Shown: positions 1 to 16,447 of the stretch, in pieces
Position numbering within the stretch: the stretch's first letter is position 1
How the letters are laid out: each line of letters starts with the position of its first letter
Notes under the pieces: generated by a model
Told to the model about the DNA's origin: nothing
The model's input: the letters and a program-made list of their open reading frames with translations, nothing else
Databases searched by the model: none
Translations under genes and position numbers: made by a program
NCBI GenBank assembly: GCA_043815805.1
Contig: JBDRIN010000004.1
Coordinates: 1 to 32,000 of the forward strand
Length of the DNA stretch: 32,000 nucleotides
From: an archaeon
GTDB taxonomy: Archaea > Nanobdellota > Nanobdellia > Woesearchaeales > JBDRIN01
Reading direction: 5' to 3'

Positions 1-204
1 TTGCGCGGGGCTTGAGGAGGTCGTTTGGTTGCTGCGAGCGTTTACAGCTCATTACCCTCAGCGACTGTTGCTTTCCCAAGTCCCGCGCTCCCTTTGGAGT
101 CAACAGCCAGGCAAGACCTACAGGCTGGGTCTGGCTAGGAACCACATAAAGAGTGTTCATGATAGTTCGGCACTTGGATGCACGCAAAGAAGGAGGTTAG
201 CGCC

Positions 205-1020
205 ATGAGAACGTTCACAAAGACAGCCTTTGCCATCATCATCTTGCTGGCGACGCTGCTCTTGACATCAGGCTGCGCAGTGAAATCGATGCGCGGGCCC
301 CGGAGAGCGCCTCCAGACCTGAACCATTCCAGTCAGACCGACCTGATGGGATGGAAGCACGACCTGGTCGAGGCGATCGAACACAAGCAGAGGATATACA
401 TCTCCCCTGCCCAGCTTCAGGCATTGCATTGGAATGCTATGAAGGCCAGGTACGACATCGACGACGACATCGAGGTGTCAGAACTGGTTGCACTCGGCAC
501 CTACTCGGACAATGGTATGTGGCCCCACACCAAGTCCGAGATGATGTATTCTCTGGATGTGCTCTATCCGGAGAAGCTCACCAGGATAGACGAGGGCTAC
601 TGGATGCTCTACACTGTCGAGAAGATCTTCGATAGCTTCGACTACATGTTCGTTGAGATGGACGAAGTCCAGGAGCCAAGATACGCCACGCACCGTGAAG
701 ACGGCAGAGTAGCCTGGGATCGGGAAGTCAACGAGCCCAGCATGGTAGAGCAGAGGAGAGGGTATCGTGTTCCGTTCGCGCACAAGAGCCACCTCTACAG
801 CTTCAGACAGCGCTACGCGGTGTACTGTCCGGACTATCCAAACCCACCTGGCTTCTATTCGCTGGAGCTCGAGACCAAGCGGGGACCGACCAGGTATTTC
901 TGGCCGGAGAGGAGAAAGATCCGAGACAAACTCGCGGAGCTCAAGAAGAGGGGCGGGCTCACGCTGGAAGAAGGACAGACAGCAATCAAGTGGTTGAGAA
1001 ACCTGGTATCATCAATCTGA
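205..1020 (+). CDS. Putative lipoprotein, unknown function
   Basis: ORF track gives 178..1020. I prefer the ATG at 205 because it lies 9 nt after GAAGGAGG (188-195). The N-terminus MRTFTKTAFAIIILLATLLLTSG|C looks like a signal peptide plus lipobox-like cysteine. G/C-ending codons dominate. No family recognised. Confidence 0.6.
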   Translation: MRTFTKTAFAIIILLATLLLTSGCAVKSMRGPRRAPPDLNHSSQTDLMGWKHDLVEAIEHKQRIYISPAQLQALHWNAMKARYDIDDDIEVSELVALGTYSDNGMWPHTKSEMMYSLDVLYPEKLTRIDEGYWMLYTVEKIFDSFDYMFVEMDEVQEPRYATHREDGRVAWDREVNEPSMVEQRRGYRVPFAHKSHLYSFRQRYAVYCPDYPNPPGFYSLELETKRGPTRYFWPERRKIRDKLAELKKRGGLTLEEGQTAIKWLRNLVSSI

Positions 1021-1033
1021 AGGGAAAACGAAG

Positions 1034-1789
1034 ATGAAGAAGCTCATGATAGTTGCGATGGTGCTGTGCCTGGTGCCGACGATGATGCTCGCAGAGAGCA
1101 TCAACCCGCGCGATTTCACCGAGGGCCAGCTCCTGCTTCGGAGCGTCAACCGACAGCTCGAGGCTGCACGGGTCGAGACCCTGCGAGTCGTGATTCCTGA
1201 AGACGTCATCGAGGAGTGCTTCAACATCCTCGTGTTCTCCGGCGACTACGAGCAGGAAGCCACGTTCTACAAGAATCTCATACTCGGCGCGCACTTCGAG
1301 AGCGACATCCATGTCTGGCACTGGCTCATGCAGCTTCATCAGCTGCGGCTGGAGCAACTCACCAGAGTTGACAACGAGCTACTCTCGCAGCCCATAGCTC
1401 TGATACACATCGGCGAGATGGAGCTCCTGTTCTCTGAACTCAGCGCACAAATCAGGACGTGGCACGAGTACGCCGATCTGGTCATCGAGACCTTCGAGGA
1501 GGATTACCCTGGGAAATTCTACGGGTCTCAGTCTGCAAATGATGTCATGGCCAACTTCGAGAGAGAGCATCCTGAGTTCGCCCGCGACGCAATCTGGCCT
1601 GGACTTCGTGCGACGGAATTCGCGAGGTACCTCGACAGCGAAGGAAGTCGGAGCTGGATCGACGCCTTCGGACCCGAGGAGATCACGGCGAGAGCGGTCT
1701 ACGACGAGGTCAAGGATCAGACCTACATCACCCAGGACAAGGCGAAGACCTACATGATCAGCGTCTACCCGGACTTCCTCGTGTACTAG
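1034..1789 (+). CDS. Secreted protein, unknown function
   Basis: ORF track. N-terminus MKKLMIVAMVLCLVPTMMLA|E looks like a signal peptide. It starts 13 nt after the preceding stop, so it is probably co-transcribed. No family recognised. Confidence 0.55.
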   Translation: MKKLMIVAMVLCLVPTMMLAESINPRDFTEGQLLLRSVNRQLEAARVETLRVVIPEDVIEECFNILVFSGDYEQEATFYKNLILGAHFESDIHVWHWLMQLHQLRLEQLTRVDNELLSQPIALIHIGEMELLFSELSAQIRTWHEYADLVIETFEEDYPGKFYGSQSANDVMANFEREHPEFARDAIWPGLRATEFARYLDSEGSRSWIDAFGPEEITARAVYDEVKDQTYITQDKAKTYMISVYPDFLVY

Positions 1790-1921
1790 AACGGTTCACG
1801 GACGCGCGGGTGCATCGGAGCGCACACTGTGTGGCAGAGTCCATGTGGGGCATGCAGAGTGCGGTGTTATTTGGCACGATCCTTTGTGCCCGCGCAAACG
1901 AAACGCTATAAGGGGGTTCCC

Positions 1922-3067
1922 ATGTTTCATTTCCGGAGCAATATCCGGATTGGATTGATGATCATCATCATGGTGGCCATGGCAGTACCTGCGTTCGCGG
2001 AGAACAAAGCGCCGCTGGAGGTATGGGGGCACATGCTCTATGATGTCACCACCTTCCCGGCGGTCGATGACTCTCTGGGCATCTCAGACAAGGAGGTCTC
2101 AAGAGCAAGACAGCTGCAGTTCGGGATTAAGCAGGATCTCGGCGGCGGCATGATGACCAGCATCGCGGTGGACGTCGCCGGCGGCAACATAGCTGTGATG
2201 GATGCCTACCTCAAGAGGAAGGACATCTACGCTGGCTGGGACCTCAGGTTCGGGCACACTGTCGAACCAGGACCGCTCACTTCGTGGATCCCTCCGAAGA
2301 GCATGGCATGCCTGGAGCGAGCGTCGATCGACGCTTTCTTCGCCGGGATGAACGTCGGGTTCCTGGCTGAGAAGTCAACGCCGCATACGGCACTCGCCGT
2401 GGGTATCTTCAGGGACACTGACAGATATCTCAAAGGCGAGGGCAAGACCGGCGGGCTGAGCGGGAGGTACACTCACATCATCGGCGAGGATGCTTCCTCC
2501 CGGCTGATCCATCTTGGGGCCTGGGGTTCACTTAGGAATCCTGAGAGCGTCCAGTTCCAGGCGAAGCCTGAAGTGAGCGGCTGTGAGCCGATCTTTGAGA
2601 CTGCTGAAGTGCCGACTTCGAGGACCTTCACGTCTGGTGTCGAGTTCGCTGGTGTCCGTGGACAGACCCACTTTGCGGTGGAATACGTCCAGGTGGATGT
2701 CGACGGCGACTACGAAGCCGAAGCCTGGGGCTACTACACTCAGGTCGGGTATTTCTTCAATCATGGGAAATACCGGCTGTACGATAAGGATAAGGGGATC
2801 TGGCAGCAGGTCGAGCTCGAGGAAGGCGAAAGCGCATTGGAGCTTGTTGCCAGGTTCTCCAGGATTGACCTCGGCGACTTCGAGTCAGGGGGCGAGCTCG
2901 CAAGCTACAACCTTGGCCTAAACTGGTACCTGAACAGCCAGGTCAAGATCATGCTGAACGCCACTAACTTCGAGGCCTTCGACGCCTGCGGAGACAATAT
3001 CGGCGACGGCACTGCTTTGAGTGCACGGTTGCAGGTGCAGTTTTCAGAGAAGTTGTACGGGAAGTAA
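1922..3067 (+). CDS. OprO/OprP-family (Porin_O_P type) outer-membrane beta-barrel porin
   Basis: ORF track gives 1829..3067 from a GTG. I prefer the ATG at 1922, preceded by AAGGGGG, which gives the signal peptide MFHFRSNIRIGLMIIIMVAMAVPAFA|E. Family-typical blocks are SRARQLQFG, VMDAYLK...LRFGHTVEP...LERA, GVEFAG...AVEY, ELVARFSRIDLGD and YNLGLNWYLNSQVKIMLN. A beta-signal-like ...RLQVQF lies near the C-terminus. Confidence 0.75.
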   Translation: MFHFRSNIRIGLMIIIMVAMAVPAFAENKAPLEVWGHMLYDVTTFPAVDDSLGISDKEVSRARQLQFGIKQDLGGGMMTSIAVDVAGGNIAVMDAYLKRKDIYAGWDLRFGHTVEPGPLTSWIPPKSMACLERASIDAFFAGMNVGFLAEKSTPHTALAVGIFRDTDRYLKGEGKTGGLSGRYTHIIGEDASSRLIHLGAWGSLRNPESVQFQAKPEVSGCEPIFETAEVPTSRTFTSGVEFAGVRGQTHFAVEYVQVDVDGDYEAEAWGYYTQVGYFFNHGKYRLYDKDKGIWQQVELEEGESALELVARFSRIDLGDFESGGELASYNLGLNWYLNSQVKIMLNATNFEAFDACGDNIGDGTALSARLQVQFSEKLYGK

Positions 3068-3310
3068 CAGAACGTGAGGTGGACGCGGTCGTAGGAGGCC
3101 ATGACAAGGTCGCTAAATACCATCGGCGCCTTGGTCTCGCTTGTTGGCCGCGTCCCCTCCGCTGAGAACGGAAGAGGATTACGCATCCAAGGAGAAGCAT
3201 CAGAAAAAAAGAATCCCTAGTTAGGGATAGAAAGTGAGGTGAACCTGAAACAAGACTTGGGTTGAATCATTGTTGAGTCACTCCTGGCTTTCCAAGAGAA
3301 AGGCAGACCA

Positions 3311-5416
3311 ATGCAGCCAGATGCTTTCCAAGCGCATCCTGTGACCTTCCCACGAGAACCTTTGTGGGAGAGGAACATCAGGAAGAAGGATCGGTTGCGG
3401 ATCGTCAACGAAGGTGACTTTCCGCGTGACGCACTCCTGGCAGGAATTGGAGTTGGCCAGTCACCGCTCAAGGATACCTTTGGCATCACGGACCCGGACG
3501 AGATCCGTCATCGGAACGGTCTTATGTGGTGGCTGTTCGAGAACCCTCAGGCCTGCAGGTGGATCAAGGCGGCCGATAAGGAAAGGCGGCCCCTGCCGGT
3601 CACGCAAGAAGAGTTCCTCAAGTACTTCGACCGCAGGAGGACGCACAATCCTCACTGGACCGCGGTTCACAAGTTCATCGAGATCTGCGATGCAGCCGGG
3701 AAGCTTCCACCACGGCTCCGTACTATGGTCAACACGTTGAAGGCCAGCCTGCCTCTCGAAGGAGACGAGCAGCGGATGGCCGACTTCCTGTCTGACCAGA
3801 TTGTGAACATCACGGTCATCGAGGGTCTTCTCGAGTTCACGATCAAGATGGACACTGAGTGGGACCATCGAGGTGAAGGAAGGGGAAAGATCCAGGGCCT
3901 CGAGGATATCAACCTGGTCGAGGATACGATGCGTGTCTGGGGTCACAGCATGTACTCCTACGCGCTCAGCGAGACCGCGCTGGTGACGTACCCCGACTGG
4001 GCCAAGAAGGGTAAGTGGAACCCGGTCAACTGGATAGGTCTGGGCTGGTTCGTGCGACGCAAGATCAAGAAGGAGAACGCGGCGCGCAGAGCGGCGGCCT
4101 ACAAGGAGACCGTCATCACCCACTTGGACGGTGGTCTGGCAATAGAAGTCGAGAGAGGGGTGCTCCAGCGGCTCAAGCAGATCGCTTGGATGAAGATGTA
4201 TCCCAAGGACAAGGTGAGGTTCCAGGGCGCCACGGCCAAGGTCTACTTCTCTTACTCCAAGGAAGGCCTCTGGATCCACATCTATGGGATTGAGCCGGCT
4301 CCCTCAGCTTCGAAAACCATGTTCACCTACGGCATGTACGCGGGCTACTCTGAGAGTCGCAGGGTCGTCATCGCGAGCGGCCAGGCCGACTTCCAGAAGG
4401 AGCTTTCGTCGTACAACGACGAGATGGAACGCGCAGGCATCCGTCTGATGATCCGGGAACATGATCAAGGGCTTCCGGAGAATCAGAAGATGACGCTCCG
4501 GGACGAGTGGGCTGATCTTGTCCCTGTGGGCGAGACACCTCCGGATGCGCGTCAGATGCTCTTCCGCCAGAGCTTCAGGATACCATCTCCGGCGACGGAC
4601 AGGAAGTACCGCTGGTTCGCGCTCAGCAACCTCTACCAGGGACCTGTGCTACACGAAGTCTACGAGGCTACGAGGCGGCACCGGATCTGGTTCGAGCGTC
4701 AGCTGAATCTCCTCAAGATGGTCGCGGACCTGGCAGACGGCCAGCGCGAAACCGCCCTGAAGATCGGCTCTCCGCTTTCAAGGCCAAGGCTGGCTACGAA
4801 TGGCGAGCAGGTTGTTTCGTTCGACGAGATCTACCCCATGCACCTCATCTCCACTCTCGGCGGACGGAGGCCTGTCCCGATTAGGGAACTGCCTGTAATC
4901 AACGGACAGATGATCGGATTCACAGGCTACCACGGCGGCGGCAAGAGCGTGGCCGAGTTGAGCGTCACCGACCACATCTACATCGTCCAGAGCGGTCTGC
5001 TGGCCTTCGGCACGGGTTGGGTTTCTAACCCCAAGAAGATGATCGGTCTGGTCTTCATCGAGCGCGGCGATGGCTCGACGTTCCAGCTCCTGCTGCAGAA
5101 GATCACGAACGTCCTGCTGGAAAGCAGGCACTACCATCCGAGCGAGGTGATGGTCATCCTGGACGAGTTGGGCACCGGTACCCAGGAAGCATCCGGTCTT
5201 GATGTCGGAAAGGATGTTCTGGCGAAGCTGCAGAGGATGGGTATACCCACTCTCTTCAGCACCCAGATCACAGACCTCGCGACGTTCGCGGAGGACGAAC
5301 TCGGAGCGCAGTGCTTCAAGTTCGACCGACACCACGGCATCACGCCAGGTATCGGTGACGGCGGGGCGAAGGACCTGATGAAGCGTATGGGTCTTGCACG
5401 TCTCGTTGCCAACTAG
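3311..5416 (+). CDS. MutS-related ATPase (MutS core-like N-terminal region plus MutS domain V ABC-type ATPase); no mismatch-binding or nuclease domain evident
   Basis: Walker A is GYHGGGKS and Walker B is VMVILDELGTGT. A GDGSTF block sits where MutS has STF, and LFSTQITDL sits where MutS has (F/A)THxxEL. The N-terminal ITDPDEIRHRNGLMWWLFENP resembles the MutS core-domain 'I..R.d.V..L..n' helix. Confidence 0.7.
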   Translation: MQPDAFQAHPVTFPREPLWERNIRKKDRLRIVNEGDFPRDALLAGIGVGQSPLKDTFGITDPDEIRHRNGLMWWLFENPQACRWIKAADKERRPLPVTQEEFLKYFDRRRTHNPHWTAVHKFIEICDAAGKLPPRLRTMVNTLKASLPLEGDEQRMADFLSDQIVNITVIEGLLEFTIKMDTEWDHRGEGRGKIQGLEDINLVEDTMRVWGHSMYSYALSETALVTYPDWAKKGKWNPVNWIGLGWFVRRKIKKENAARRAAAYKETVITHLDGGLAIEVERGVLQRLKQIAWMKMYPKDKVRFQGATAKVYFSYSKEGLWIHIYGIEPAPSASKTMFTYGMYAGYSESRRVVIASGQADFQKELSSYNDEMERAGIRLMIREHDQGLPENQKMTLRDEWADLVPVGETPPDARQMLFRQSFRIPSPATDRKYRWFALSNLYQGPVLHEVYEATRRHRIWFERQLNLLKMVADLADGQRETALKIGSPLSRPRLATNGEQVVSFDEIYPMHLISTLGGRRPVPIRELPVINGQMIGFTGYHGGGKSVAELSVTDHIYIVQSGLLAFGTGWVSNPKKMIGLVFIERGDGSTFQLLLQKITNVLLESRHYHPSEVMVILDELGTGTQEASGLDVGKDVLAKLQRMGIPTLFSTQITDLATFAEDELGAQCFKFDRHHGITPGIGDGGAKDLMKRMGLARLVAN

Positions 5417-5662
5417 TTCGACGAGGAACCGGGGGCTGGTATGATTTGCATGAGCGAGTTGTGCTAGCCCCTTTCCTCACCTGACTTTAGAATCATGAGC
5501 CATTGTTTGGCTGAAGGCATAAAGAGTGACAGATGGATGACAACTTGGATGACATCTAATTCCATGCGAAGCAAGCAGTAGCACATCGAAAGACTGCCGT
5601 AATCATGGCAGCAGAAAGGAGAACATCCAAACCAGGCTTGGGTGTTGTTATACTTTCTACTC

Positions 5663-5761
5663 GTAGAACAAAACGGAGGTGCTCCCTGCAGGAGATGCTG
5701 GACCCATTTCTGGCATCGCTCGTCCTGCAGGGACCCTCCCGCGGGAGGAAACCTCTACCAG
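5663..5761 (+). repeat. Copy A of a conserved structured ~100-nt element (candidate cis-regulatory RNA or sRNA)
   Basis: The element reads GTAGAACA..GGAGGT(P1)..CTCCCTGCAGG(P2)..hairpin..CCTGCAGGGA(P2')..CCTCCCGCGGGAGG(P3)..ACCTCT(P1')..ACCAG. It ends 30 nt before ATG 5792. Confidence 0.55.
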
Positions 5762-5791
5762 TTTTTCGCCATAAGGCGAGGAGTGTAACAG

Positions 5792-6589
5792 ATGCGAAAG
5801 TACACATTGGTTTTGGTCCTGGTGCTCATCGCGATGATGGTGGGGATGGCTTCTGCCTATCCTCTCCTCATTCCAAGGAAGGCTGTGGGAGATCCTGCAG
5901 ATGAGGGGTACGAGAGGTTCGAGGAGGCCTGGGATCGGCTCTACTATGCTGCCACAGACCACTACCGCTATGTTCCAAGGGTTGACGAGCGGCTGAACGC
6001 GTTCAACTACATCAACGACAGGCCGTTGGACGAGCAGGCCAAGTACAACATACTCCGCGTGCAGGGCCATATCGCCAACACGGCGGTGATGAGTCGCCTG
6101 TTCGAAGTTGTCGGCAATCTCTGGCTCGAAGAGCTGCGCGAGGTCGAGAACCCGGTCAAACGCAAGAGCATGTTCTATAGTCGCTTCTGCGACCAACTCC
6201 CCGTGCTCTTCAGAATCCTGAACGGGGACATTGAGCGGGCGCAAAAGTTCCTTGGACGGAACAAGCACATCAAGGCCGACAGTGAGTCCAACGGAGTCAG
6301 GATCTACCCCGGCTGGTACGACGACGACTTGCCGGAGATTATGGATAGCTGGAACACGCGCGCGGGGGTGTGGAGTCGCAACAAGCGTGTCTGGGATGGT
6401 TTCCTACTTCCTGAGATCAATGCCTGCGACGACATGAGGGACGCGCTCGTGAAGTACGACGATCTCAGCATGGAGGAAGCGTACGCGTTGCTGGACAGGT
6501 ACTTCGGCATTGCATACGGTCCGGACGACGGCGGCTTGGTCTTCTTGCCGTACACGCCGCGGGAAGAGTTGCGGTCGAGGACCGAGTGA
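5792..6589 (+). CDS. Secreted protein, unknown function
   Basis: ORF track. GAGGAG lies upstream. The signal peptide is MRKYTLVLVLVLIAMMVGMASA|YP. The sequence is rich in aromatic and acidic residues. No family recognised. Confidence 0.55.
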   Translation: MRKYTLVLVLVLIAMMVGMASAYPLLIPRKAVGDPADEGYERFEEAWDRLYYAATDHYRYVPRVDERLNAFNYINDRPLDEQAKYNILRVQGHIANTAVMSRLFEVVGNLWLEELREVENPVKRKSMFYSRFCDQLPVLFRILNGDIERAQKFLGRNKHIKADSESNGVRIYPGWYDDDLPEIMDSWNTRAGVWSRNKRVWDGFLLPEINACDDMRDALVKYDDLSMEEAYALLDRYFGIAYGPDDGGLVFLPYTPREELRSRTE

Positions 6590-6600
6590 TCGACGGAGAA

Positions 6601-6706
6601 GTAGAACAGTGGAGGCTCCCTGCGGGGACGGTACTGACGGTGTTAAGGGGGACCCTGATGTACTTAGTTCCTGCAGGGACCTCCCACGGGAGGTTAGCCT
6701 CAACAG
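6601..6706 (+). repeat. Copy B of the same structured element
   Basis: The element reads GTAGAACA..GGAGGCT(P1)..CTCCCTGCGGG(P2)..CCTGCAGGGA(P2')..CCTCCCACGGGAGG(P3)..AGCCTC(P1')..AACAG. It starts 12 nt after the stop at 6589. A further GGAGGTAGAACA occurs at 6719-6730. Confidence 0.55.
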
Positions 6707-6835
6707 AGTTCGAAGATCGGAGGTAGAACAACACAACGTCCTAGCCGCGGCGGCAGTCTGACAACGCTGCTCAACAACGGTCTGGCTGGGAACCGGATTC
6801 GTTTAGAAGTAGCCGCGGTATAGGATAGGCCCAAA

Positions 6836-6882
6836 GGAAGAGGCGTAGGTTCGCCAGAAGTAATCCGCCTGTGCCTCTTTCC
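6836..6882 (+). repeat. GGAAGAGGC...GCCTCTTTCC hairpin upstream of ORF 6918
   Basis: It has a 9-bp stem with one bulged T and a 28-nt loop. It is related in sequence to 7608-7659 and, at its 5' arm, to 9901-9942. Confidence 0.45.
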
Positions 6883-6917
6883 TAGGGCTCGGACATATTC
6901 CCCTGGAGGAAAAGGTT

Positions 6918-7145
6918 ATGGTAAAGAAACGCGGTGGTGAGGCTCCCCTGCCAAGATACACCAGAGGTGCTGCCCTGAACAAGGCTGCAAGTCCCAGCTA
7001 CAAGTACAAGCTCACCAAGAGCACTCGGGCTGGTGTCGAGGAGTGGGAGAAGGATCCAAACCAGGATCCGAACAAGCTCATGCACCAGATTACTGCGAGT
7101 GCGGTGGCGAGGGAGTTCGGCTGGGTGATCATCGAGGACGAATAG
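6918..7145 (+). CDS. Small soluble protein (75 aa), unknown function
   Basis: ORF track. GGAGGA lies 7 nt upstream. Third codon positions are mostly G/C by hand count (about two thirds), consistent with coding in this GC-rich segment. Confidence 0.45.
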   Translation: MVKKRGGEAPLPRYTRGAALNKAASPSYKYKLTKSTRAGVEEWEKDPNQDPNKLMHQITASAVAREFGWVIIEDE

Positions 7146-7158
7146 GAGGGACTCGAAT

Positions 7159-7428
7159 ATGCGTTTCACAGTTGTTACACTGGGAGTTCTGGCAGTCGTC
7201 GTGGCCCTGGCTTTCTTCTTTGGTCCCAGCGGGAGGGAGGCGGCTGCTTCGGACAACTTCTTCGCAGGCAACGTGTGGGTTGTCTGTTTCGCCTGGCTCG
7301 GGATAGTAGCCATGATAGCCTCGACAGGCAGGAACTTCGGACTGGGCGATAGGATCATCCGCTGTGCGGCCAGGTTCGCGTCTGGGATGTGCGGCGTCTT
7401 TGCCCTGGGGTGGTTCATGACACCGTAG
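7159..7428 (+). CDS. Small integral membrane protein (about 3 TM segments)
   Basis: ORF track. AGGAGGG lies upstream and the gene starts 13 nt after the previous stop. Hydrophobic segments are VVTLGVLAVVVALAFFF, VWVVCFAWLGIVAMIA and GMCGVFALGWF. Confidence 0.5.
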   Translation: MRFTVVTLGVLAVVVALAFFFGPSGREAAASDNFFAGNVWVVCFAWLGIVAMIASTGRNFGLGDRIIRCAARFASGMCGVFALGWFMTP

Positions 7429-7607
7429 GGCTTCGTAGGAACTAGGGTCCGTGGCCCTAGAGGTGCTGGCTGCTTTTGAGCCAGCTGTTGGAAGCGTTCT
7501 AGTTGGGAGGGACGCTATGTGCACTGCTGTCCTTGGTCTGAAGTTGGGCTTCCGAGCAAATCAAGATATCAGGCGCACGGGAGCTATGAGGCTAAGGATA
7601 GTCCTAT

Positions 7608-7659
7608 GGAGAAGGGCGTGGGTAGTTTTTGTTGGGCTGAATGCCTGCGCCTCTTCTCC
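7608..7659 (+). repeat. GGAGAAGGGCG...CGCCTCTTCTCC hairpin upstream of the TPR lipoprotein gene
   Basis: It has an 11-bp stem with one bulged T. The flanks (CCTGCGCCTCTTCTCCTGGGG) parallel those at 6868-6887 (CCTGTGCCTCTTTCCTAGGG). Confidence 0.45.
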
Positions 7660-7771
7660 TGGGGTTTTGGAGTACCCTAACTCGGAAACAAGGTCTGGCT
7701 TGTAAGCTAGACTTCTTGATAGATTACATGAGTGTAACTCAGGATCCAAAGACAAACGAAAGGAGCTAAAG

Positions 7772-8971
7772 ATGCGACGCATCATGTCAGTTTTTGTAAT
7801 CGCCGCACTCATGTTGGGAGGCTGCGTCGGCACCATGCCTCCGCCAGCACAAGAGACCACCATGACGCTGATGACCATCCAGGGCAGCGACAAGGAAAGG
7901 AACGAGCTGACTCCTGCACAAAAAGCAGTGCAGCTGGCTGGCGAGTTCTACAGCGTGAGAGAGATCGACAAGGCTATTGAGAAGTATCAGGAAGCCTTGG
8001 TTCTCGATCCAGACATGATCGACGCGTATCTTGGACTCGCCAGGATTTATCTGGTTGAGATCCAGGACTACGACAAGGCCCTGGCGATGTATCAGGCGGC
8101 GAGCGAGAGAGCTCCTCAGGATGCATACACCAGGACTGCTCTGGCCTATGCCTACTTCGTAGTCGGCAGGTACGAGGAGTCGATCGCAGAGTACGTGGTT
8201 GCCGTGGGGATTTCGTCAGAGGATGCCGACGCATTCCTTAACCTTGGCTATGCATACGCAAAGGTCGGCGATGATGTCAGCGCGATCAATGCGTATCGCC
8301 GGGCAGCAGAGCTTTCGCCCCAGGATGGTAGGATCGTGCAGCAGCTTGCACATCTCTACTACACCAACGGCATGTACGACCACGCCATCGCCGCGTACGA
8401 ACAGCTGCAGCGACTTGGAGCGGCAAGTGACCACTCCTTATCTACGCTCGGCTTTCTATACATGAAAGTTGGAGCTTACGGCAAGGCAGAGTCGGTCTTG
8501 CTTGCATTGCTTGAGAGGGAACCCGACAACTTTGATGCGCGGGCCAACCTGGCTAGCATCTATAGGTCGACCTCAAGATTTGCTGAGGCGATTGAGCAGT
8601 TCAACACGCTCGTTGAGATGCAGCCTGGCAACCCGACCTACTTGGCTGCTCTGGCTGACGCTTACAACGACGCCGGCAGGTACGGAGACGCCATAGTTGC
8701 CGCTAGGAGGCTGTTGGTGGTTTCACCGGGGCATGGCAGTGCATACCTTGCATGGGCCAAGGCTTTGGAGAAGCAGGCCGATGCTTTGGTGGAGGCAGAA
8801 GGGTTCGACGCTGCAGTAGTGATGTATGAGAACGCGATTTCCAAACTGGAAGAGGCTCGGAGGGATCCTCAGTGGAGGTCGCATGCAGTGAAGGAGATCG
8901 ATAGGCAGAACCAGCATATCGAGAGGGCAAAGCAGAAGGAGCGGGACGAGATCTACAACAGGGACAAGTAG
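7772..8971 (+). CDS. TPR-repeat lipoprotein
   Basis: AAGGAG lies 6-7 nt upstream. N-terminus MRRIMSVFVIAALMLGG|C is a signal peptide plus lipobox. There are multiple 34-aa TPR-like units (e.g. AYLGLARIYL...YDKALAMYQAA, AFLNLGYAYAKVGDDVSAINAYRRAAELSP). Confidence 0.75.
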   Translation: MRRIMSVFVIAALMLGGCVGTMPPPAQETTMTLMTIQGSDKERNELTPAQKAVQLAGEFYSVREIDKAIEKYQEALVLDPDMIDAYLGLARIYLVEIQDYDKALAMYQAASERAPQDAYTRTALAYAYFVVGRYEESIAEYVVAVGISSEDADAFLNLGYAYAKVGDDVSAINAYRRAAELSPQDGRIVQQLAHLYYTNGMYDHAIAAYEQLQRLGAASDHSLSTLGFLYMKVGAYGKAESVLLALLEREPDNFDARANLASIYRSTSRFAEAIEQFNTLVEMQPGNPTYLAALADAYNDAGRYGDAIVAARRLLVVSPGHGSAYLAWAKALEKQADALVEAEGFDAAVVMYENAISKLEEARRDPQWRSHAVKEIDRQNQHIERAKQKERDEIYNRDK

Positions 8972-8988
8972 GGGAAAGAAGAAGTCCT

Positions 8989-9217
8989 ATGTCGACCAGG
9001 CCAACATTTGAACTGGCAGAATCAATCGAAGAAGTCATGAAGGCGCGGGGTTACGAGAACAGCTGGAGACGCTACGAGATTGAGGCTTTCGCCAAGGAGA
9101 TCGGACTGGAAGACGACGCGGTATCTCGAGATAGTACTCACTCCAGGCAAGGCAGATCCTCTGAAGAAGAAGGAGCTCGAGAGCATCAACGCCTGGATAT
9201 TCAAGTGGGCGAGGTAG
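8989..9217 (+). pseudogene. Small hypothetical gene whose coding frame appears to shift by +1 near 9105-9125
   Basis: The track ORF 8989..9234 looks protein-like up to ...FAKEIGLEDD, then becomes low-complexity (SRDSTHSRQGRSSEEEG...). The +1 frame over 9122-9214 reads YLEIVLTPGKADPLKKKELESINAWIFKWAR* and has much higher third-position G/C in my hand count (about 23/32 versus 15/37). Confidence 0.4.
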
Positions 9218-9239
9218 AGGTGAGAAGGAGGTGAACGAT

Positions 9240-9587
9240 TTGAAGAAAGCCCTAATCACATTCGCAGGGATGATCGTGTTTGCGCTTATCGTGGCGGTGA
9301 TAGCGTCTTTTGTGGACGACCCGAACGATATGACTACAACCGTGCTGGTTACCATCTTCGTGACCATGATTGTCTCTTTCATGGCGACCCAAGACGGACA
9401 GCGAGGCGCCCTCATAACCGTGCTGGTAGCAGTGTCGATGATTGGCGGCTGCAGCGTGGGTCTGATGGCGCCATGGAAAGAACCTGTTGTCCAGACCGAA
9501 GTGACGACAGATGTCGAGGACAACGGCGACACCGACACGACACTGACAGTCTGGGAGGAAGGAGGACAGGATGTTCCAGATCACTAG
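9240..9587 (+). CDS. Small membrane protein (about 3 TM) with acidic C-terminal tail
   Basis: The track starts at GTG 9231, which lies inside the SD AAGGAGGTGA. TTG at 9240, 8 nt after GGAGG, gives MKKALITFAGMIVFALIV... and is the more plausible start. Confidence 0.5.
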   Translation: MKKALITFAGMIVFALIVAVIASFVDDPNDMTTTVLVTIFVTMIVSFMATQDGQRGALITVLVAVSMIGGCSVGLMAPWKEPVVQTEVTTDVEDNGDTDTTLTVWEEGGQDVPDH

Positions 9588-9882
9588 GCGCATCCTGGGG
9601 AACAACAGAGGGGATACCCTGGTGGCCATGGCAGGGTTCATGGTGTTCGTCTTCCTCCTCTTGACTCTGCTTGCGCATTGGGGCATTTACGGATTCCCCC
9701 AGGGCGTAATCGTGGAGCTCGGAACAGTAAGTGCCAACACAAGTAGTGCGGGACTCTACGAACCAATAGAGCTTCCCGAGTGGGCTGGTGCTTTGCTGTT
9801 CGCAATGCCATACATCATCATATTCACGGTGCTCACTTTGCTAGAGAAGCCCAAGAAGCTCGTAGCGGAATGTACTGACTAG
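9571..9882 (+). CDS. Small membrane protein (2-3 TM)
   Basis: ORF track. GGAAGGAGGA lies upstream of ATG 9571. It overlaps the previous ORF by 17 nt. Third codon positions are G/C-rich. Confidence 0.5.
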   Translation: MFQITRRILGNNRGDTLVAMAGFMVFVFLLLTLLAHWGIYGFPQGVIVELGTVSANTSSAGLYEPIELPEWAGALLFAMPYIIIFTVLTLLEKPKKLVAECTD

Positions 9883-9902
9883 AACCTCCATCATCGTACG
9901 AA

Positions 9903-9942
9903 GAGGCAGAACTCAAGGCTGTTAATCTTGAAGTTCTGCCTC
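9903..9942 (+). terminator. Strong stem-loop closing the GC-rich gene block (no adjacent U-tract)
   Basis: GAGGCAGAACTCAAG (9903-9917) pairs with CTTGAAGTTCTGCCTC (9927-9942) with one bulge and a 9-nt loop. It lies 21 nt after the stop at 9882. A T7 run occurs only at 9980-9986. Confidence 0.4.
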
Positions 9943-10019
9943 GCCTAAGCGTGATTGTGTGAGCAACTGGATTTCCGGCTTTTTTTATGTACTATTTATT
10001 TTCTATATGGAAAGTTATT

Positions 10020-10692
10020 CTTACAGGTCAGGCCCCCCAAGCCCTTAAGGGCGTGGTACCATGGCCTGACCTGCGAATTGCTTGAGGGATTTCTGCAATC
10101 CGTACTGCCCCGTTGTGTTGCTCTCCCTGATGTAATGGTCTATCACCCCTCCTGTTACACTCCCCACGGTTCTCGAGAATGTGAAGGAACTCCACAACGC
10201 TTTGTACTTTCTCCTCCATGTCTGCATTTTGCGTATCTTGTAGCTTGTGTAGCCTTTCAATAGTTGAAAGGCTTTTGCCACAGACATGGTCCGTGGCAGA
10301 CGCACAAAGACGTGTACATGATCCTTCATGACTTTGCACTCGAACACTTCGATGTCGTGCTTTTTCGCCGCAACCTCTATCAGGTTGCGGCATAGCTTTG
10401 CCATACCCTCACCCTCGAAAGTTGGGTAACGATACTTGGTCACCCAGATCATGTGGTACGTGTTTTGGCTCACTCCGTGAGCCGATTTAGTCAGAACTTC
10501 GTATTCCATATTTAGCACCTCCGCAAATTTTTTATACTAGCGAGGCATAGCTAACACTAACTTAGACGTTGTTTGAATGCGTCGGCTACGCCACGCATTC
10601 ATTCTTATATTTTCTCGAGAATAAATAGGTTTTGCTTCGCAAAACCTAAAGGGGCTTCACTCGACGGGCTGAAGCCCGCAGTACCTCGCCCC
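10020..10692 (-). mobile_element. IS200/IS605-family insertion sequence (tnpA only); boundaries approximate
   Basis: A Y1 transposase ORF is flanked by subterminal hairpins typical of the family: 10024-10073 (CAGGTCAGGCC...GGCCTGACCTG with an inner GCCCTTAAGGGC), 10574-10601 (TGAATGCGT...ACGCATTCA), 10627-10647 and 10652-10677. The whole unit is bracketed by similar AT-rich hairpins at 9994-10019 and 10693-10718. Confidence 0.6.
10045..10518 (-). CDS. tnpA: IS200/IS605-family Y1 (HUH) transposase TnpA
   Basis: Motifs are YHMIWVTKYRYP, the HUH motif HVHVFV, LKGYTS, LWSS..F.RTVG and a C-terminal HYIRES tyrosine motif. The last ~9 codons run into the terminal hairpin. Confidence 0.85.
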   Translation of the reverse strand: MLNMEYEVLTKSAHGVSQNTYHMIWVTKYRYPTFEGEGMAKLCRNLIEVAAKKHDIEVFECKVMKDHVHVFVRLPRTMSVAKAFQLLKGYTSYKIRKMQTWRRKYKALWSSFTFSRTVGSVTGGVIDHYIRESNTTGQYGLQKSLKQFAGQAMVPRP

Positions 10693-10754
10693 ATTTATTT
10701 TCAGTATAGAAAATAAATAGGTTTTTATACTTATATATTTATATAATAGGAAAG

Positions 10755-10913
10755 ATGGCGCTGAAGACAGTCAAAAAAGGATGCCCTGCATGCGGCGGGG
10801 ACGTGGTAGGGAATGATGAGTTCAGGTTCTTCTGCAAGAAATGCAACATGCTCTTCAAGGAAAGAGACCTGAAAAAAGAGAAGAAGGAAGATAAAAAAGA
10901 TGCCAAGCAATGA
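10755..10913 (+). CDS. Small zinc-ribbon protein (52 aa) with K/E-rich tail
   Basis: Hand-translated as MALKTVKKGCPACGGDVVGNDEFRFFCKKCNMLFKERDLKKEKKEDKKDAKQ*. It has two CxxC pairs. An AT-rich TATA-like tract lies immediately upstream. It is too short for the ORF track. Confidence 0.5.
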   Translation: MALKTVKKGCPACGGDVVGNDEFRFFCKKCNMLFKERDLKKEKKEDKKDAKQ

Positions 10914-10949: not shown

Positions 10950-11777
10950 ATGGTGATTGAAAGATTAGAACTAGAGGTGGTAATAGCTGATATTGATGAT
11001 ACTCTAGCCGATTGTCTAAAGTATTACAGGGCAGTCAACCTCATGAACACAAGAATTCTACAGAGAAATCTCTTCCATCTTGATCTGGGGGATGATGACG
11101 TGAAGCCTGTGGTGAAGAGAATTTCTGATGAGCTAGAGCTGAGCCTTGGCAGGAGCAGGAAAAGATATCAGGAAACTTGGAGAAGAGTGTATGAACATTT
11201 TCTTAAGAAAGCCATTAAAGGCGCAGAGGTCGATGAAAATTCTCCCATGTTCAAAGAGATCATAGCAAACACAGAGATGCCCTATGCAAGAGAGACCTAT
11301 GAAAAGAACGGTCTCATGCCAGGAGTGGAAGGCGCGCTTGATTACTTAGTATCAGAAGGCGTTAGGTTATGCCTCTTGACAAGAGAAACTTTGTTTGACG
11401 GAGAACCTTCAACCCAAGACTTGAAGATAGATGCACTTGGCTTGAGGCAAGAAAATCCTGATGGTACAAGAAGATGGTTTGAGGATAGATACACCAAGAT
11501 CGTGCCTGAGAAGACAGTAGGTGATTTCGAAGAGCTATTGGGTGGTGTTGCTCCTGAGCGCGCAGCAACCATAGGTGACTCATGGCAAGACATCTGGCCC
11601 GGAGTGGACAGGCTCAACATGTGGGGTTTTCACGTCTATGATCCTGAGGGTTGGAATCCTGGAACTCCTCCTGAAGCATTCCATAATCATCCAAGGATAA
11701 AAAGAATCCCTGAGTTCGCGCTGATGCCAGAAATATATCCTTGGCTTAATGAAATCTTTATGTATAGACAGGAATAA
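10950..11777 (+). CDS. HAD-superfamily hydrolase
   Basis: The N-terminal motif I is VIADIDDTL (DxDxT). A late GDSWQDI acidic motif is present. Specific substrate unknown. Confidence 0.6.
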   Translation: MVIERLELEVVIADIDDTLADCLKYYRAVNLMNTRILQRNLFHLDLGDDDVKPVVKRISDELELSLGRSRKRYQETWRRVYEHFLKKAIKGAEVDENSPMFKEIIANTEMPYARETYEKNGLMPGVEGALDYLVSEGVRLCLLTRETLFDGEPSTQDLKIDALGLRQENPDGTRRWFEDRYTKIVPEKTVGDFEELLGGVAPERAATIGDSWQDIWPGVDRLNMWGFHVYDPEGWNPGTPPEAFHNHPRIKRIPEFALMPEIYPWLNEIFMYRQE

Positions 11778-11818
11778 AGAAGAACTAAAGGTCGTAGCAG
11801 GCAGCGCAGAGCGCTGTT

Positions 11819-12787
11819 ATGGAAAACCTTTTAAATCACTCTAAGTTTTTTCTTTCTATGTTCATACATACCATCGATCCGACATTATTTAGCCTGGGAC
11901 CTTTCCCAGTGCGCTTCTATGGCATTGTCTATGCAGTTGGATTCCTGTTCATGTATTTTTACCTTTATCAGGCAGCCAAGAAAGGCAAGATAAAAAACCT
12001 GAAGCCTGTGGATGTTGATTGGCTCGTGATATTCTTGATTATCGGCGTCCTAGTAGGAGCTAGATTCTTTGAAGTCGTAGTATACAATCCAGGATATTAC
12101 TGGCAATATCCACTAGATATCCTTAAGATATGGCAGGGCGGCTTGAGTTTCCACGGAGCCTTGCTGGGAGTTTTCATCCTGACTTGGCTCTACTCAAGAA
12201 AAAGAGACATCAACCTGTTCGAGATATTAGATGTTGCTGTGATTCCTCTGACAATATTTTTGTTCCTGGGAAGAATCGCTAACTTTGTTAATGGAGAACT
12301 GTGGGGAACAGTGACCAATGTTCCCTGGTGCGTAAAATTCCAGGGAGTGGAAGGATGCAGGCACCCATCGCAGATATACGAATCCCTAAAGAATCTGGGA
12401 TTGTTCTTCATACTTTTCTTCACTTCAAAACACAAGAAAGACAGGAAACCAGGATTCATATTCTGGCTGTTCGTATTACTATATGGTATATTCCGATTTG
12501 TCATAACCTTCCTGCGCTTCGACGACCTGTATTGGGGATTGAGCAAAGGACAATGGTTGTGCGTTGTCATGATAATCCTGGGCGCCTACATGCTTTACAG
12601 GATGAAAAAGCAAAAAGAATTTAAAGTTAAGAAAAAAGAGAAAATAAAAGAAAAAAAAGAAGAGAAGAAAGAAGAAAAGGCAGAAAAGAAAGAAGAACCT
12701 GTTGAAGAAGAGCAAGTAAAAAAAGAGAAAGAAGTCGAACAGCAGGTCGCTGTGGACGAGCAAGCTTCGGAGGAAAAAAATGATTAA
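11819..12787 (+). CDS. lgt: Prolipoprotein diacylglyceryl transferase (bacterial-type Lgt) with K/E-rich C-terminal tail
   Basis: Lgt-typical blocks are FSLGPFPVRFYGIVYAVGF, WQGGLSFHGALLG, GRIANFVNGELWG and RHPSQIYES. The start could instead be Met14 (11858). The last ~60 aa form a KEKK/EEKK low-complexity tail. Confidence 0.85.
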   Translation: MENLLNHSKFFLSMFIHTIDPTLFSLGPFPVRFYGIVYAVGFLFMYFYLYQAAKKGKIKNLKPVDVDWLVIFLIIGVLVGARFFEVVVYNPGYYWQYPLDILKIWQGGLSFHGALLGVFILTWLYSRKRDINLFEILDVAVIPLTIFLFLGRIANFVNGELWGTVTNVPWCVKFQGVEGCRHPSQIYESLKNLGLFFILFFTSKHKKDRKPGFIFWLFVLLYGIFRFVITFLRFDDLYWGLSKGQWLCVVMIILGAYMLYRMKKQKEFKVKKKEKIKEKKEEKKEEKAEKKEEPVEEEQVKKEKEVEQQVAVDEQASEEKND

Positions 12788-13451
12788 GCTTCCGGTCATC
12801 ATGATAAACTTCAAGACCTATGAGAAAGCAACAGGCGAGAAAGCAGAAGAACTCGCTTTGTTGTGCGATAAAGTTTCTAAGGAAACAGGAAAGAACATCG
12901 CTGTCTGCGTGCAAGCAGGAGATATCTTTAGAGTTTCTCAAAAAGTATCTATCCCTGTGCTTGCCGAACACCTAGATCCTGAAGAACCTGGCAAACATAC
13001 AGGCGACATAACAGGCGAAGACATAAAATCAAATGGCGCCATCGGAACCTTATTGAATCATTCTGAAGATCGTTATCAATTGGATCTCCTGGAGAAAGCT
13101 GTTGTAAAAGCAAAAGAGCTCGGCCTGATCAGCGTTGTCTGCGCAAACAACAGCGAAGTGGCAGAAGCAGTCGCTGCTTTTGAGCCAGACATGATCGCTA
13201 TCGAACCGCCAGAATTGATTGGCACCAAGATTTCTGTCAGTGAAGCAAAGCCAGAATTTGTGACAAAGACAGTCGATAAGATAAGAAAGATACATCCAAA
13301 CGCAGTCATCTTATGTGGAGCAGGCATACACAACGCAGAAGACGTCAAGAAAGCGATTGAATTAGGAACTCAAGGTGTTCTCTTGGCAAGTGCTGTCACC
13401 CAGGCAGATAATCCAGAAGAAGTTCTAAAAGAATTAGCTAAAGGCCTTTAG
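12780..13451 (+). CDS. tpiA: Triosephosphate isomerase, short archaeal type
   Basis: 223 aa. Motifs are MINFKTY, LLNHSE, IAIEPPELIG and CGAGI. It overlaps the lgt stop by 8 nt. Confidence 0.85.
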   Translation: MIKLPVIMINFKTYEKATGEKAEELALLCDKVSKETGKNIAVCVQAGDIFRVSQKVSIPVLAEHLDPEEPGKHTGDITGEDIKSNGAIGTLLNHSEDRYQLDLLEKAVVKAKELGLISVVCANNSEVAEAVAAFEPDMIAIEPPELIGTKISVSEAKPEFVTKTVDKIRKIHPNAVILCGAGIHNAEDVKKAIELGTQGVLLASAVTQADNPEEVLKELAKGL

Positions 13452-14899: not shown

Positions 14900-15595
14900 A
14901 TGATAGAAGAAATTTCACCATCGGAACTCGTGGAAGCATTGGCAAAAGAGATGCCCAAATTAGTTCAAAAACCGGAATGGGCAGACTTTGTCAAGACCGG
15001 AGTGCACAAAGAAAGGCCGCCAACCAAAGAAGACTGGTGGTATATACGGACAGCTGCTGTCCTAAGGACAGTCTATGTCAAAGGCCCGATCGGTGTCTCT
15101 AAGCTCAGGACCAAGTACGGCGGAAAAAAGAACCGAGGTGTAAAACCAGAGCGCTTCAAGAGAGGAAGCGGCAAGATTCTAAGGACAGTCCTTCAACAGC
15201 TAGAAGCGGCTGGTCTCATAAAACAAGGCAAGGTAGGCGTGCATAAAGGCAGGATGCTGACTGCTAAAGGAAAAAAATTGATGAAAAGCGCAGCAGAGAA
15301 CCTGTATAAGACTAAGCCGAAGCCAGCGCCTGAACCAACGCCTAAGCCTGCACCGGCAGCAACACCGGCGAAGCCGGCAAAAGAGCCGCAGCCCAAGGCT
15401 CCAGAACCAAAGAAAGAGGCAAAAGCAGAAGTGAAGGCTGAAAAGAAAACAGAAGAGAAGAAACCCGAAGTCAAAGAAGAGAAAAAACATGAAGTGAAGA
15501 AAGAAGAACCTAAGAAGGAACCTGAAACAAAGCCAAAAGAAGAAGGCAAGGTCGCTGCAGCAGAAACCCCTGCTGAAACTAAAGATAAGAAGTGA
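14900..15595 (+). CDS. rps19e: Ribosomal protein eS19 with ~95-aa K/P/E/A-rich C-terminal extension
   Basis: eS19 blocks are PEWADFVKTGVHKERPP, DWWYIRTAAVLR, GGKKNRG and ILRTVLQQLE. The tail starts around KPKPAPEP. Confidence 0.9.
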   Translation: MIEEISPSELVEALAKEMPKLVQKPEWADFVKTGVHKERPPTKEDWWYIRTAAVLRTVYVKGPIGVSKLRTKYGGKKNRGVKPERFKRGSGKILRTVLQQLEAAGLIKQGKVGVHKGRMLTAKGKKLMKSAAENLYKTKPKPAPEPTPKPAPAATPAKPAKEPQPKAPEPKKEAKAEVKAEKKTEEKKPEVKEEKKHEVKKEEPKKEPETKPKEEGKVAAAETPAETKDKK

Positions 15596-15775: not shown

Positions 15776-16447
15776 ATGGCAGATAAAAAGACTGAGAAGA
15801 CAGAAGAGAGAACCTACAATGTCCCTCTGAGAAGGGGCTATGTTAACAGTGCCAGGCATAAGAGGACCAAGAAAGCAGTCTCTATCCTCAGGAACTTCGT
15901 GAAGAAGCACATGAAAGTAGACGAAGTGAAGCTAGGTCAGAACCTTAATCTGGAGCTATGGAAGCATGGCATAAAGAATCCTCCTCATCATGTCAAGATA
16001 ACAGTCACCAAAGAAGACGGCGTTGCTAAGGCAGAGCTTGTGGGCTTTGATTATAAAGAAGAGAAGAGGCCTGAGAAAAAGGTCGAAGAGCAGACCAGTC
16101 TCAAAGATAAGTTGGCTGCAAAGCTAGGCGTGAAAGAAGAAGACGCAGAAGAGGAGAAACCTAAGAAAGCAAAGAAGGCTGGAGAAAAGCCAGCAGAAAC
16201 AGAAAAGAAGGAAGCGCCTAAATCAGAAGAGAAGAAAGAAGCGCTCAGAAACCAGAAGGTTTCTGGCGTGTTAGAAACGGAAAGCGTTTCAAACACTCCT
16301 GCGCCAGCAGCAAAAGAGCCACCTAAAGCTCCTGAACCTAAGGAAGAAGAGAAGAAACCTGAAGTGAAAGAAAAACCGGCTGAAAAAGAAGCTGAGAAAA
16401 AAGATAATCCTAAACCTGAATCTAAGCCGAAAGAAGATAAAAAATAA
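15776..16447 (+). CDS. rpl31e: Ribosomal protein eL31 with ~130-aa K/E/P-rich C-terminal extension
   Basis: The core is ERTYNVPLRR...RHKRTKKAVSILRNFVKKHM...VKLGQNLNLELWKHGIKNPP. It lies immediately after rpl39e, as in many archaea. Confidence 0.85.
   Translation: MADKKTEKTEERTYNVPLRRGYVNSARHKRTKKAVSILRNFVKKHMKVDEVKLGQNLNLELWKHGIKNPPHHVKITVTKEDGVAKAELVGFDYKEEKRPEKKVEEQTSLKDKLAAKLGVKEEDAEEEKPKKAKKAGEKPAETEKKEAPKSEEKKEALRNQKVSGVLETESVSNTPAPAAKEPPKAPEPKEEEKKPEVKEKPAEKEAEKKDNPKPESKPKEDKK

Follow-up and report, generated by a model that had tools for sequence, protein, structure and literature searches.

Compositional switch in the window

The window analysed here is a stretch of 32,000 nt (positions 1 to 32,000 of contig JBDRIN010000004.1, assembly GCA_043815805.1) assigned to an archaeon of the Woesearchaeales. 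Its first 9.9 kb are GC-rich and carry 11 co-directional genes, among them those for an OprO/OprP-type porin and a MutS-like ATPase; the remainder is AT-rich and carries archaeal core genes, and an element of the IS200 group of insertion sequences (IS) lies close to the switch between the two. The GC-rich segment (1–9942, plus strand), probably the right-hand 9.9 kb of a larger genomic island, is referred to below as the island, and the intergenic site at which it ends as the hotspot.

Analysis of base composition revealed two compartments. The G + C content (GC) per 500-nt bin is 0.52–0.61 throughout positions 1–10,000 and 0.36–0.52 past 10,500. A two-state likelihood with a single change point placed the switch at about 9.8 kb, with a GC of about 0.564 to the left and 0.432 to the right, and the whole-side values are 0.563 and 0.431; the window contains no Ns. 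Tetranucleotide profiles of 2-kb chunks correlate at r = 0.64–0.82 within the left side and 0.69–0.91 within the right side, and at only 0.03–0.47 across them, the IS-bearing chunk clustering with the right side. When each side was taken as a whole, left and right correlated at r = 0.25, compared with 0.87–0.94 between the two halves of either side. The GC at third codon positions (GC3) is 0.54–0.79 in the eleven left genes and 0.29–0.55 in those of the right side, except for two genes near the junction, the transposase gene (0.61) and a small Zn-ribbon open reading frame (ORF; 0.60). An earlier reading of the sequence alone (the original prediction) had described a switch from GC-rich to AT-rich DNA here; GC bins, change point, GC3 and tetranucleotides all agree with it, and the position of the switch, the hairpin, the porin, the archaeal gene content and the nearby IS200 element that it reported were all found again. 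The tetranucleotide comparison it had proposed as a check found the signatures of the two sides to be unrelated.

Position of the junction

The island ends with a GC-rich hairpin (GAGGCAGAACT … AGTTCTGCCTC; 9903–9942, plus strand) with perfect outer arms of 11 nt; the 107 nt from 9884 to 9990, hairpin included, fold at −33.6 kcal/mol (z = −2.8). Homology to all relatives begins at 9976, with a T-run followed by the near-palindrome TTTTCYATATRGAAA (9976–10013), a piece of conserved archaeal intergenic DNA that aligns to contigs L007–L015. This T-run plus TTTTCTATATGGAAA forms both the edge of the hotspot and the target of the IS. Because the alignment shows 9976–10013 to be archaeal, the breakpoint lies in the spacer at 9943–9975, between the hairpin and the T-run and at least 38 nt from the IS; the spacer itself has a partial likeness to L009 (TGTGTG…TGGA). 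The empty site is read from L008, in which …TTTGTTTTTTTTTGAAATAATTCTTTTCCATATAGAAAATAATTAAG… is followed by the Zn-ribbon ORF with no IS, and whose Lgt is 71% identical to that of the window. No truncated gene was found on either side of the junction, both sides being cut in intergenic DNA.

Variation of the site among relatives

Eight contigs from the closest relatives (L008–L015), assembled by three pipelines (ENA MEGAHIT, Logan on SRA runs, and JGI), were aligned in the region preceding the Zn-ribbon ORF. From this ORF to eL21 their gene order is that of the window, gene for gene, with 70–79% nucleotide identity; among themselves, their archaeal sides on the right of the T-run are 99.88–100% identical over stretches of up to 8,488 nt. 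Six of the eight (L009–L014) extend to the left of the T-run, and there their GC is 0.49–0.60 as against 0.42 downstream, so that in all six the switch falls at this T-run, some 80 nt ahead of the Zn-ribbon gene. Whether related genomes carry the same junction had been set as a check on the original prediction, and these six contigs answer it with an equivalent switch.

The left flanks of the six contigs are of two types, A (L009 and L013) and B (L010, L011, L012 and L014), which have no detectable similarity to each other and part exactly where the T-run begins, at its 5′-most base. Type B is not an inverted type A, since blastn on both strands found no similarity. The other two contigs, L008 and L015, stop exactly at the T-run, as is expected of a branch point in an assembly graph. 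In L009 the GC-rich block can be followed across its whole length of 2.2 kb (about 2450–4673, GC 0.54), and its far flank has an archaeal-type composition (r = 0.87–0.90 with the cores) and carries a DUF87 ATPase gene. The more distant L007 (Lgt 63% and TIM 75% identical) has AT-rich DNA with a membrane-protein gene at the site. Four variants are thus found at one T-run, namely type A, type B, the window version and no island (L007), and the one population of closest relatives holds at least two unrelated GC-rich segments. A still more distant Lgt relative, L016, has a different synteny and was uninformative on how far the hotspot extends.

The DNA to the left of the type-A island in L009 (140–2445) encodes a coiled-coil protein and the DUF87 (HerA/VirB4-like) ATPase, which has a winged-helix-like C-terminal tail. 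Both genes have host-like composition and may either belong to a larger mobile element or be chromosomal neighbours of the island.

Kinship of the islands

Comparison of the window island with those of the relatives found similarities at several levels. The same 11-nt hairpin arms (GAGGCAGAACT/AGTTCTGCCTC) are present at the end of the type-A island (L009 and L013), at a distance of 26 nt from the T-run compared with 33 nt in the window, and the hairpin motif is absent from the rest of the window and from the other loci compared. The window gene at 8989–9217 matches the last gene before the hairpin in L009 (91 aa) in tblastx, with 53% identity over 30 aa at L009 4491–4580 (E = 2e-6), and the small gene at 6918–7145 matches the type-B island of L010 (616–825) with 42% identity over 60 aa (E = 2e-14). 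The tetranucleotide profile of the window island correlates with those of the type-A island (L009, r = 0.77) and the type-B island (L010, r = 0.75), as against 0.18–0.32 with archaeal cores. In all islands the genes are co-directional, are led by Shine-Dalgarno (SD) sequences, often encode small membrane proteins and read towards the T-run. Because the GC-rich signature, the small helix-turn-helix (HTH)-like genes and, for one type, the terminal hairpin are held in common, the islands derive from one gene pool separate from the host chromosome.

The IS200 element

The original prediction had set the switch next to an IS200/IS605-type element. Such an element is present and has a Y1 transposase, but it does not abut the switch, as 38 nt of conserved archaeal DNA lie between them. 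It occupies 10014–10692 on the minus strand (about 680 bp; PF01797, 98.1 bits; NF033573, 96.6 bits against a cut-off of 55), with archaeal sequence picking up again at 10693. Its tnpA gene (10045–10518, minus strand) has intact HUH and Tyr motifs (HVH and …HYI… in the translation), and subterminal hairpins are located at 10024–10073, 10575–10600 and 10626–10648. On either side of the element lie imperfect direct repeats of 20 nt (85%; 9994–10013 and 10693–10712) and an inverted repeat of 22 nt, which stem from the near-palindromic target; the IS200/IS605 family is not known to make target duplications. The single Y1 HUH transposase gene and the subterminal hairpins are as in other members of the IS200 group, of which the plasmid-borne ones have transposases at most 37% identical to that of the window. 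The flanking direct repeat sets the window element apart from the group, and the element has no detectable role in the junction. Searches for a 25-mer of the IS in JGI metagenomes and for TnpA in genome representatives gave no match.

The IS site is empty in L008–L015, and a 5′-truncated copy is found at the same site in L007 (560–925). The core of this copy is 92.6% identical to that of the window element, compared with 68–71% nucleotide identity between the flanking genes of the two. Judged from this difference, the IS is a recently active element of the archaeal lineage that has struck the same near-palindromic target twice. L007 has the IS without an island, and L008–L015 have no IS, with a GC-rich flank in L009–L014. 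A role of the IS as mediator of the junction, either as a shared repeat or as a vehicle, is excluded by the empty site of L008 and by the island-free copy of L007. On this comparative evidence, the IS arrived independently of the island and later, and sits 38 nt beyond the island's right edge; it is incidental to the island and not its vehicle.

The porin

The porin gene is located at 1922–3067 (plus strand), and its product has a signal peptide (…AVPAFA/ENK). The protein matches PF07396 with 68.5 bits (cut-off 20.9) over model positions 43–370 of 370. An AlphaFold2 model built from a family alignment of 8 sequences reached a pLDDT of 86.5 and a pTM of 0.83, and its best matches in the PDB are OprP (2o4v; TM-score 0.80, E = 3.5e-18) and OprO (4rjw; TM-score 0.82). 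By profile and predicted fold, it is a genuine OprO/OprP-type beta-barrel of 16–18 strands. The window protein thus resembles OprP and OprO of Pseudomonas (PDB 2O4V and 4RJW; PF07396) in its near-full match to the model, its fold (TM-score 0.80–0.82), its N-terminal signal peptide and the conserved R-x-Q-x-x-F terminal strand. It differs from them in being only 17–19% identical to the solved porins, in a C-terminal extension of seven residues and in being encoded in an archaeal chromosome.

The nearest homologs, from a search of 5.8 billion proteins, are 31% identical and located in bacterial contigs: one (L001) lies beside a bacterial L7/L12-L10-L1-L11-NusG-SecE-L33 operon and another (L003) beside GGDEF/EAL genes. 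A scan of genome representatives with the porin gave no match. The OprO/OprP-type porin with a …RLQVQF beta-signal that had been claimed is therefore real as a family assignment, although the signal precedes seven extra residues, SEKLYGK (3047–3067). In 7 of 7 homologs the final residue of the beta-signal (F, W, I or L) is strictly C-terminal, a family feature that the window porin lacks. The extension is compatible with relaxed or altered constraints outside a cell containing the beta-barrel assembly machinery (BAM); functionally it proves nothing. Profile searches found no Omp85/BamA in the 32-kb window, and we know of no outer membrane or BAM machinery in such archaea.

Other genes of the island

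Eight of the 11 island genes encode secreted, lipoprotein/lipobox or membrane proteins. The first two, both on the plus strand as are all those that follow, encode an orphan lipobox protein of 280 aa (…LLLTSGC…; 178–1020) and an orphan secreted protein of 251 aa with an N-terminal hydrophobic signal-like segment (1034–1789), neither of which has a match in Pfam, NCBIfam, PHROGs or PADLOC. The porin gene is followed by that of a MutS-domain-V-like ATPase (3311–5416; PF00488 at 25 bits, under the cut-off) and by an SD-led gene for an orphan secreted protein of 265 aa with no Pfam match (5792–6589). Next come two small genes, one for an HTH-like protein of 75 aa (…AVAREFGW…; 6918–7145), which has a GGAGG SD and is the gene common to the type-B island, and an SD-led one for a membrane protein of 89 aa (7159–7428). 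A lipobox protein with TPR repeats (…MLGGC…; 7772–8971) matches many TPR families of Pfam, and its NCBIfam matches are all below their cut-offs; an identity with the magnetosome protein MamA was ruled out on this basis, the match of 99.9 bits standing against a cut-off of 200. The small gene homologous to the last gene of the type-A island (8989–9217) is frameshifted by 1 nt near 9117–9125, with its C-terminal part in another frame, and is either a pseudogene or the result of an indel error in the assembly. Two overlapping SD-led genes for small proteins with several transmembrane segments (118 and 103 aa; 9231–9882) complete the set. Apart from the porin, MutS-like and TPR proteins, none of the island proteins has a family match in Pfam, NCBIfam, PHROGs or PADLOC.

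Two minus-strand ORFs, at 6882–7418 in the window (178 aa) and 433–1005 in L010 (190 aa), are antisense artefacts of the GC-rich plus-strand genes. The public annotation of L010 and L014 has called one such antisense ORF as a gene; the conserved frames are the small plus-strand ORFs.

The MutS-like protein matched the ATPase domain of MutS2 in the PDB (E = 8e-4), and its N-terminal part of about 500 aa has no family match. It belongs to a sizeable and uncharacterised family (186 clusters at E ≤ 1e-30) of proteins of about 650–680 aa, of which the two named members come from a Patescibacteria metagenome-assembled genome (MAG) and an unclassified 'bacterium'. The nearest homologs in the same protein search are 40–43% identical. 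The contig of the nearest one (L004) was considered as a clue to the donor; with a GC of about 0.30 and no synteny, it was uninformative. Placement of the proteins by their relatives, proposed earlier as a check, thus gives bacterial relatives for the porin and the MutS-like protein, and DPANN relatives for the Lgt described below.

Wider searches with island sequences found little. A scan of JGI metagenomes with the first island protein, scans of viral contigs with the MutS-like protein, the DUF87 protein of L009 and TnpA, and a comparison of the island DNA with plasmid and phage records all gave no match. Since PHROGs and PADLOC returned only generic TPR, MutS or transposase matches for the island proteins, a provirus or a defence island is without support.

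The archaeal side

The conserved archaeal genes on the right of the hotspot start with the Zn-ribbon ORF (10755–10913, plus strand), which occupies the same position in L007–L015. It is followed by genes for a HAD hydrolase, Lgt and TIM (10950–13451, plus strand; assigned by Pfam), a conserved core flank that is collinear in L008–L015 with 70–79% nucleotide identity to L009. L007 is without the HAD gene, and L006 (SM23-78) has only Lgt and TIM in common at this flank, with the order Lgt, TIM, eL31, eL15, DUF655, Rpo4, eL21 kept. The right-side genes encode HAD, Lgt, a short TIM, eS19, eL31, eL15, DUF655, Rpo4, eL21, L11, Spt5-NGN, FtsZ, FKBP, CMP kinase, thermosome, a radical-SAM protein and GluRS. 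Of the archaeal machinery claimed for this side, eS19, eL31, eL15, eL21, Rpo4, Spt5-NGN and the thermosome were matched, and eL39 weakly (16.8 bits). The right side is core DNA of a DPANN-type archaeon. Scans of the window for tRNA genes and Rfam families gave no match.

The proteins eS19 (14900–15595, 231 aa) and eL31 (15776–16447, 223 aa) have long low-complexity C-terminal tails rich in Lys, Pro, Glu and Ala, the Pfam domains spanning about 137 and 70 aa, respectively. The versions in L009–L015 are comparably long (193–223 aa).

The Lgt gene (11819–12787, plus strand) lies 1.8 kb from the junction, and its product matches PF01790 with 236 bits (cut-off 24.9). Its GC3 of 0.47 is host-like, and it is located beside TIM and ribosomal-protein genes in L006–L015. 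More than 100 homologs were found, and the named ones all come from DPANN MAGs (Woesearchaeota, Nanoarchaeota, 'DPANN group' and 'Euryarchaeota archaeon SM23-78'). According to a 2025 paper, Lgt homologs have yet to be identified in archaea, and AliA/AliB are proposed there instead (PMC12462473). A clear PF01790 Lgt in conserved archaeal synteny contradicts the statement that archaea lack Lgt homologs (PMC12462473).

SD-led genes and lipoboxes on the left side had been taken as hallmarks of a diderm bacterium. Neither can serve as such here, because the archaeal side has both SDs, of the GGAGG type, in front of its TIM, eL15, DUF655 and FtsZ genes, and an Lgt of its own.

Origin of the GC-rich segment

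We conclude, with a probability of roughly 0.72, that the window up to about position 9,950 represents the right-hand portion of an authentic, strain-variable island of foreign composition at a conserved intergenic hotspot of a DPANN-type archaeon. Because close relatives carry different GC-rich inserts at the same spot, the abrupt switch very probably reflects a junction that exists in the genome rather than an error of assembly, as far as comparison of sequences can tell. The hotspot, which has an oligo-T run as its edge, immediately precedes the Zn-ribbon, HAD, Lgt and TIM genes and the block of ribosomal-protein genes. The islands could be integrative mobile elements, or flexible islands of the replacement type that are swapped when their identical flanks recombine. 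The island genes are oriented towards the hairpin and the T-run, which would end transcription in the archaeon. Because the cargo consists mostly of secreted, lipobox and membrane proteins, it may be a variable cell-surface or host-interaction module, and the host's Lgt could process its lipobox proteins. The pool may also have acquired genes of bacterial origin, those of the OprO/P-type porin and the MutS-like ATPase. The proposal that the archaeon acquired bacterial envelope genes therefore stands in part: the foreign composition and the bacterial-type porin speak for it, but not as a one-off capture beside an IS.

Several points weigh against this conclusion. The continuity of the two sides in the source genome is inferred from homology and not observed, and the left end of the island lies outside the window. 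No integrase, att repeats or tRNA gene were found at the island ends in L009, which also has no flanking repeats; no tRNA gene was found in the window, L006, L007 or L009–L011, and no recombinase in the visible 9.9 kb. The island genes held in common are short and 42–53% identical, and the porin region (1.9–3.1 kb) is tied to the end supported by homology (6.9–9.9 kb) by contiguity and composition only. The eight relative contigs possibly come from few related samples, which makes them independent assemblies and not necessarily independent sites. We also know of no home for an outer-membrane porin in an archaeon.

The original prediction had offered an assembly or binning chimera as the alternative. 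On this reading, a GC-rich diderm bacterium was wrongly joined to the archaeon at the IS200 repeat or close to it. The genome is a MAG, its two sides are compositionally unrelated, the nearest homologs of the porin are in bacterial contigs, and a repeat element lies 70 nt away, all of which would fit such an error. The join, however, is not at the IS, from which it is separated by 38 nt of conserved and unique archaeal intergenic DNA, and the IS is one of the archaeal lineage's own. At the breakpoint, all versions have in common only a T-run of 7–9 nt, too short for the k-mer of any assembler, and the cuts are intergenic on both sides with no gene truncated. Relatives from three pipelines have the same switch at the same nucleotide position, and the terminus of the window island, with its hairpin and last-gene homolog, matches the island at the same locus in L009 and L013. 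We reject the chimera, since several assemblers would have had to make the identical error at one and the same base in two species, and with a homologous fragment end, and regard it as the least probable of the explanations considered. The identical cores with alternative flanks, and the contigs that break at the T-run, also resemble an attachment site in an assembly graph, and the islands have a composition of their own; the segment might then be a plasmid or virus of this archaeon, joined by the assembler through a shared attachment region and not integrated here. In L009, however, the island has chromosomal-type DNA on both sides. Replication, capsid and integrase genes are not visible, viral contigs, phage and plasmid records and PHROGs yield only generic TPR, MutS and transposase matches, and the sequence common to all versions is short. 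Such an extrachromosomal origin is improbable.

A single, very recent transfer directly from a diderm bacterium, with no island family behind it and the likeness to other islands coincidental or due to the same donor, would explain why the composition is unameliorated and the ORFs are intact save for one frameshift. The porin is a bona fide bacterial-type barrel, and the named relatives of the MutS-like protein are bacterial, as this explanation would have it. No plausible donor is known, however, as the best matches among 5.8 billion proteins are 31% (porin) and 40–43% (MutS-like protein) identical, and most of the island genes are orphans. Small genes, the terminal hairpin and the oligonucleotide signature are common to islands of different species, and the site has turned over within one population. 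The beta-signal of the porin is also no longer C-terminal, unlike that of all bacterial homologs. We consider a single transfer unlikely, though a more serious contender than either form of false join, and prefer the strain-variable island at a hotspot.

Comparison with known islands

Flexible genomic islands, of the replacement or additive kind, at core-gene hotspots are described in marine bacteria and haloarchaea. The islands at the T-run are like them in their atypical composition, in the alternative and unrelated contents at one site on a near-identical core, in a cargo of mainly exposed or secreted proteins and in assemblies that fragment at the island edge. They differ in that the host is of DPANN type, that the islands lie 12–17 GC points above the host with a signature that recurs across species, that the cargo includes a porin of bacterial outer-membrane type, and that searches for a tRNA gene, an integrase and att repeats were negative. 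Islands with laterally exchanged genes have been reported before from a DPANN archaeon with a small genome: 'Ca. Mancarchaeum acidiphilum' Mia14 has several, the largest with 36.5 kb and 41 genes, about half of them unassignable and many small (PMC5498576). Its exchange partner is the archaeal host Cuniculiplasma, and the Mia14 island interrupts a gene (PMC5498576); the window island, in contrast, is intergenic at a T-run and has identifiable cargo with bacterial affinities.

Implications

On a bolder reading, the islands would form a mobile-element family, so far undescribed, whose members pass between DPANN archaea and diderm bacteria and whose porin and lipoproteins are put to use by the archaeon. 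We consider this speculative and hold it at long odds, slightly longer than those of the single transfer. If it were true, the archaeal lineage would live in physical contact with a bacterial partner, express the cargo and lipidate the lipobox proteins with its own bacterial-type Lgt. The OprP-like barrel would be deployed in its own envelope or as a pore in the membrane of the partner, and the loss of the strictly C-terminal beta-signal would reflect a BAM-independent use.

Archaeal bins that bear a porin look like a binning error and are routinely discarded; the comparative evidence here favours a real linkage and calls for caution when MAGs are decontaminated by GC or taxonomy. If the linkage is real, DPANN archaea hold, at a defined site, a rapidly exchanging and compositionally distinct pool that includes bacterial envelope genes, and the locus would be useful for the study of inter-domain gene flow, strain-level surface variation and possibly host range in an uncultured symbiotic lineage.

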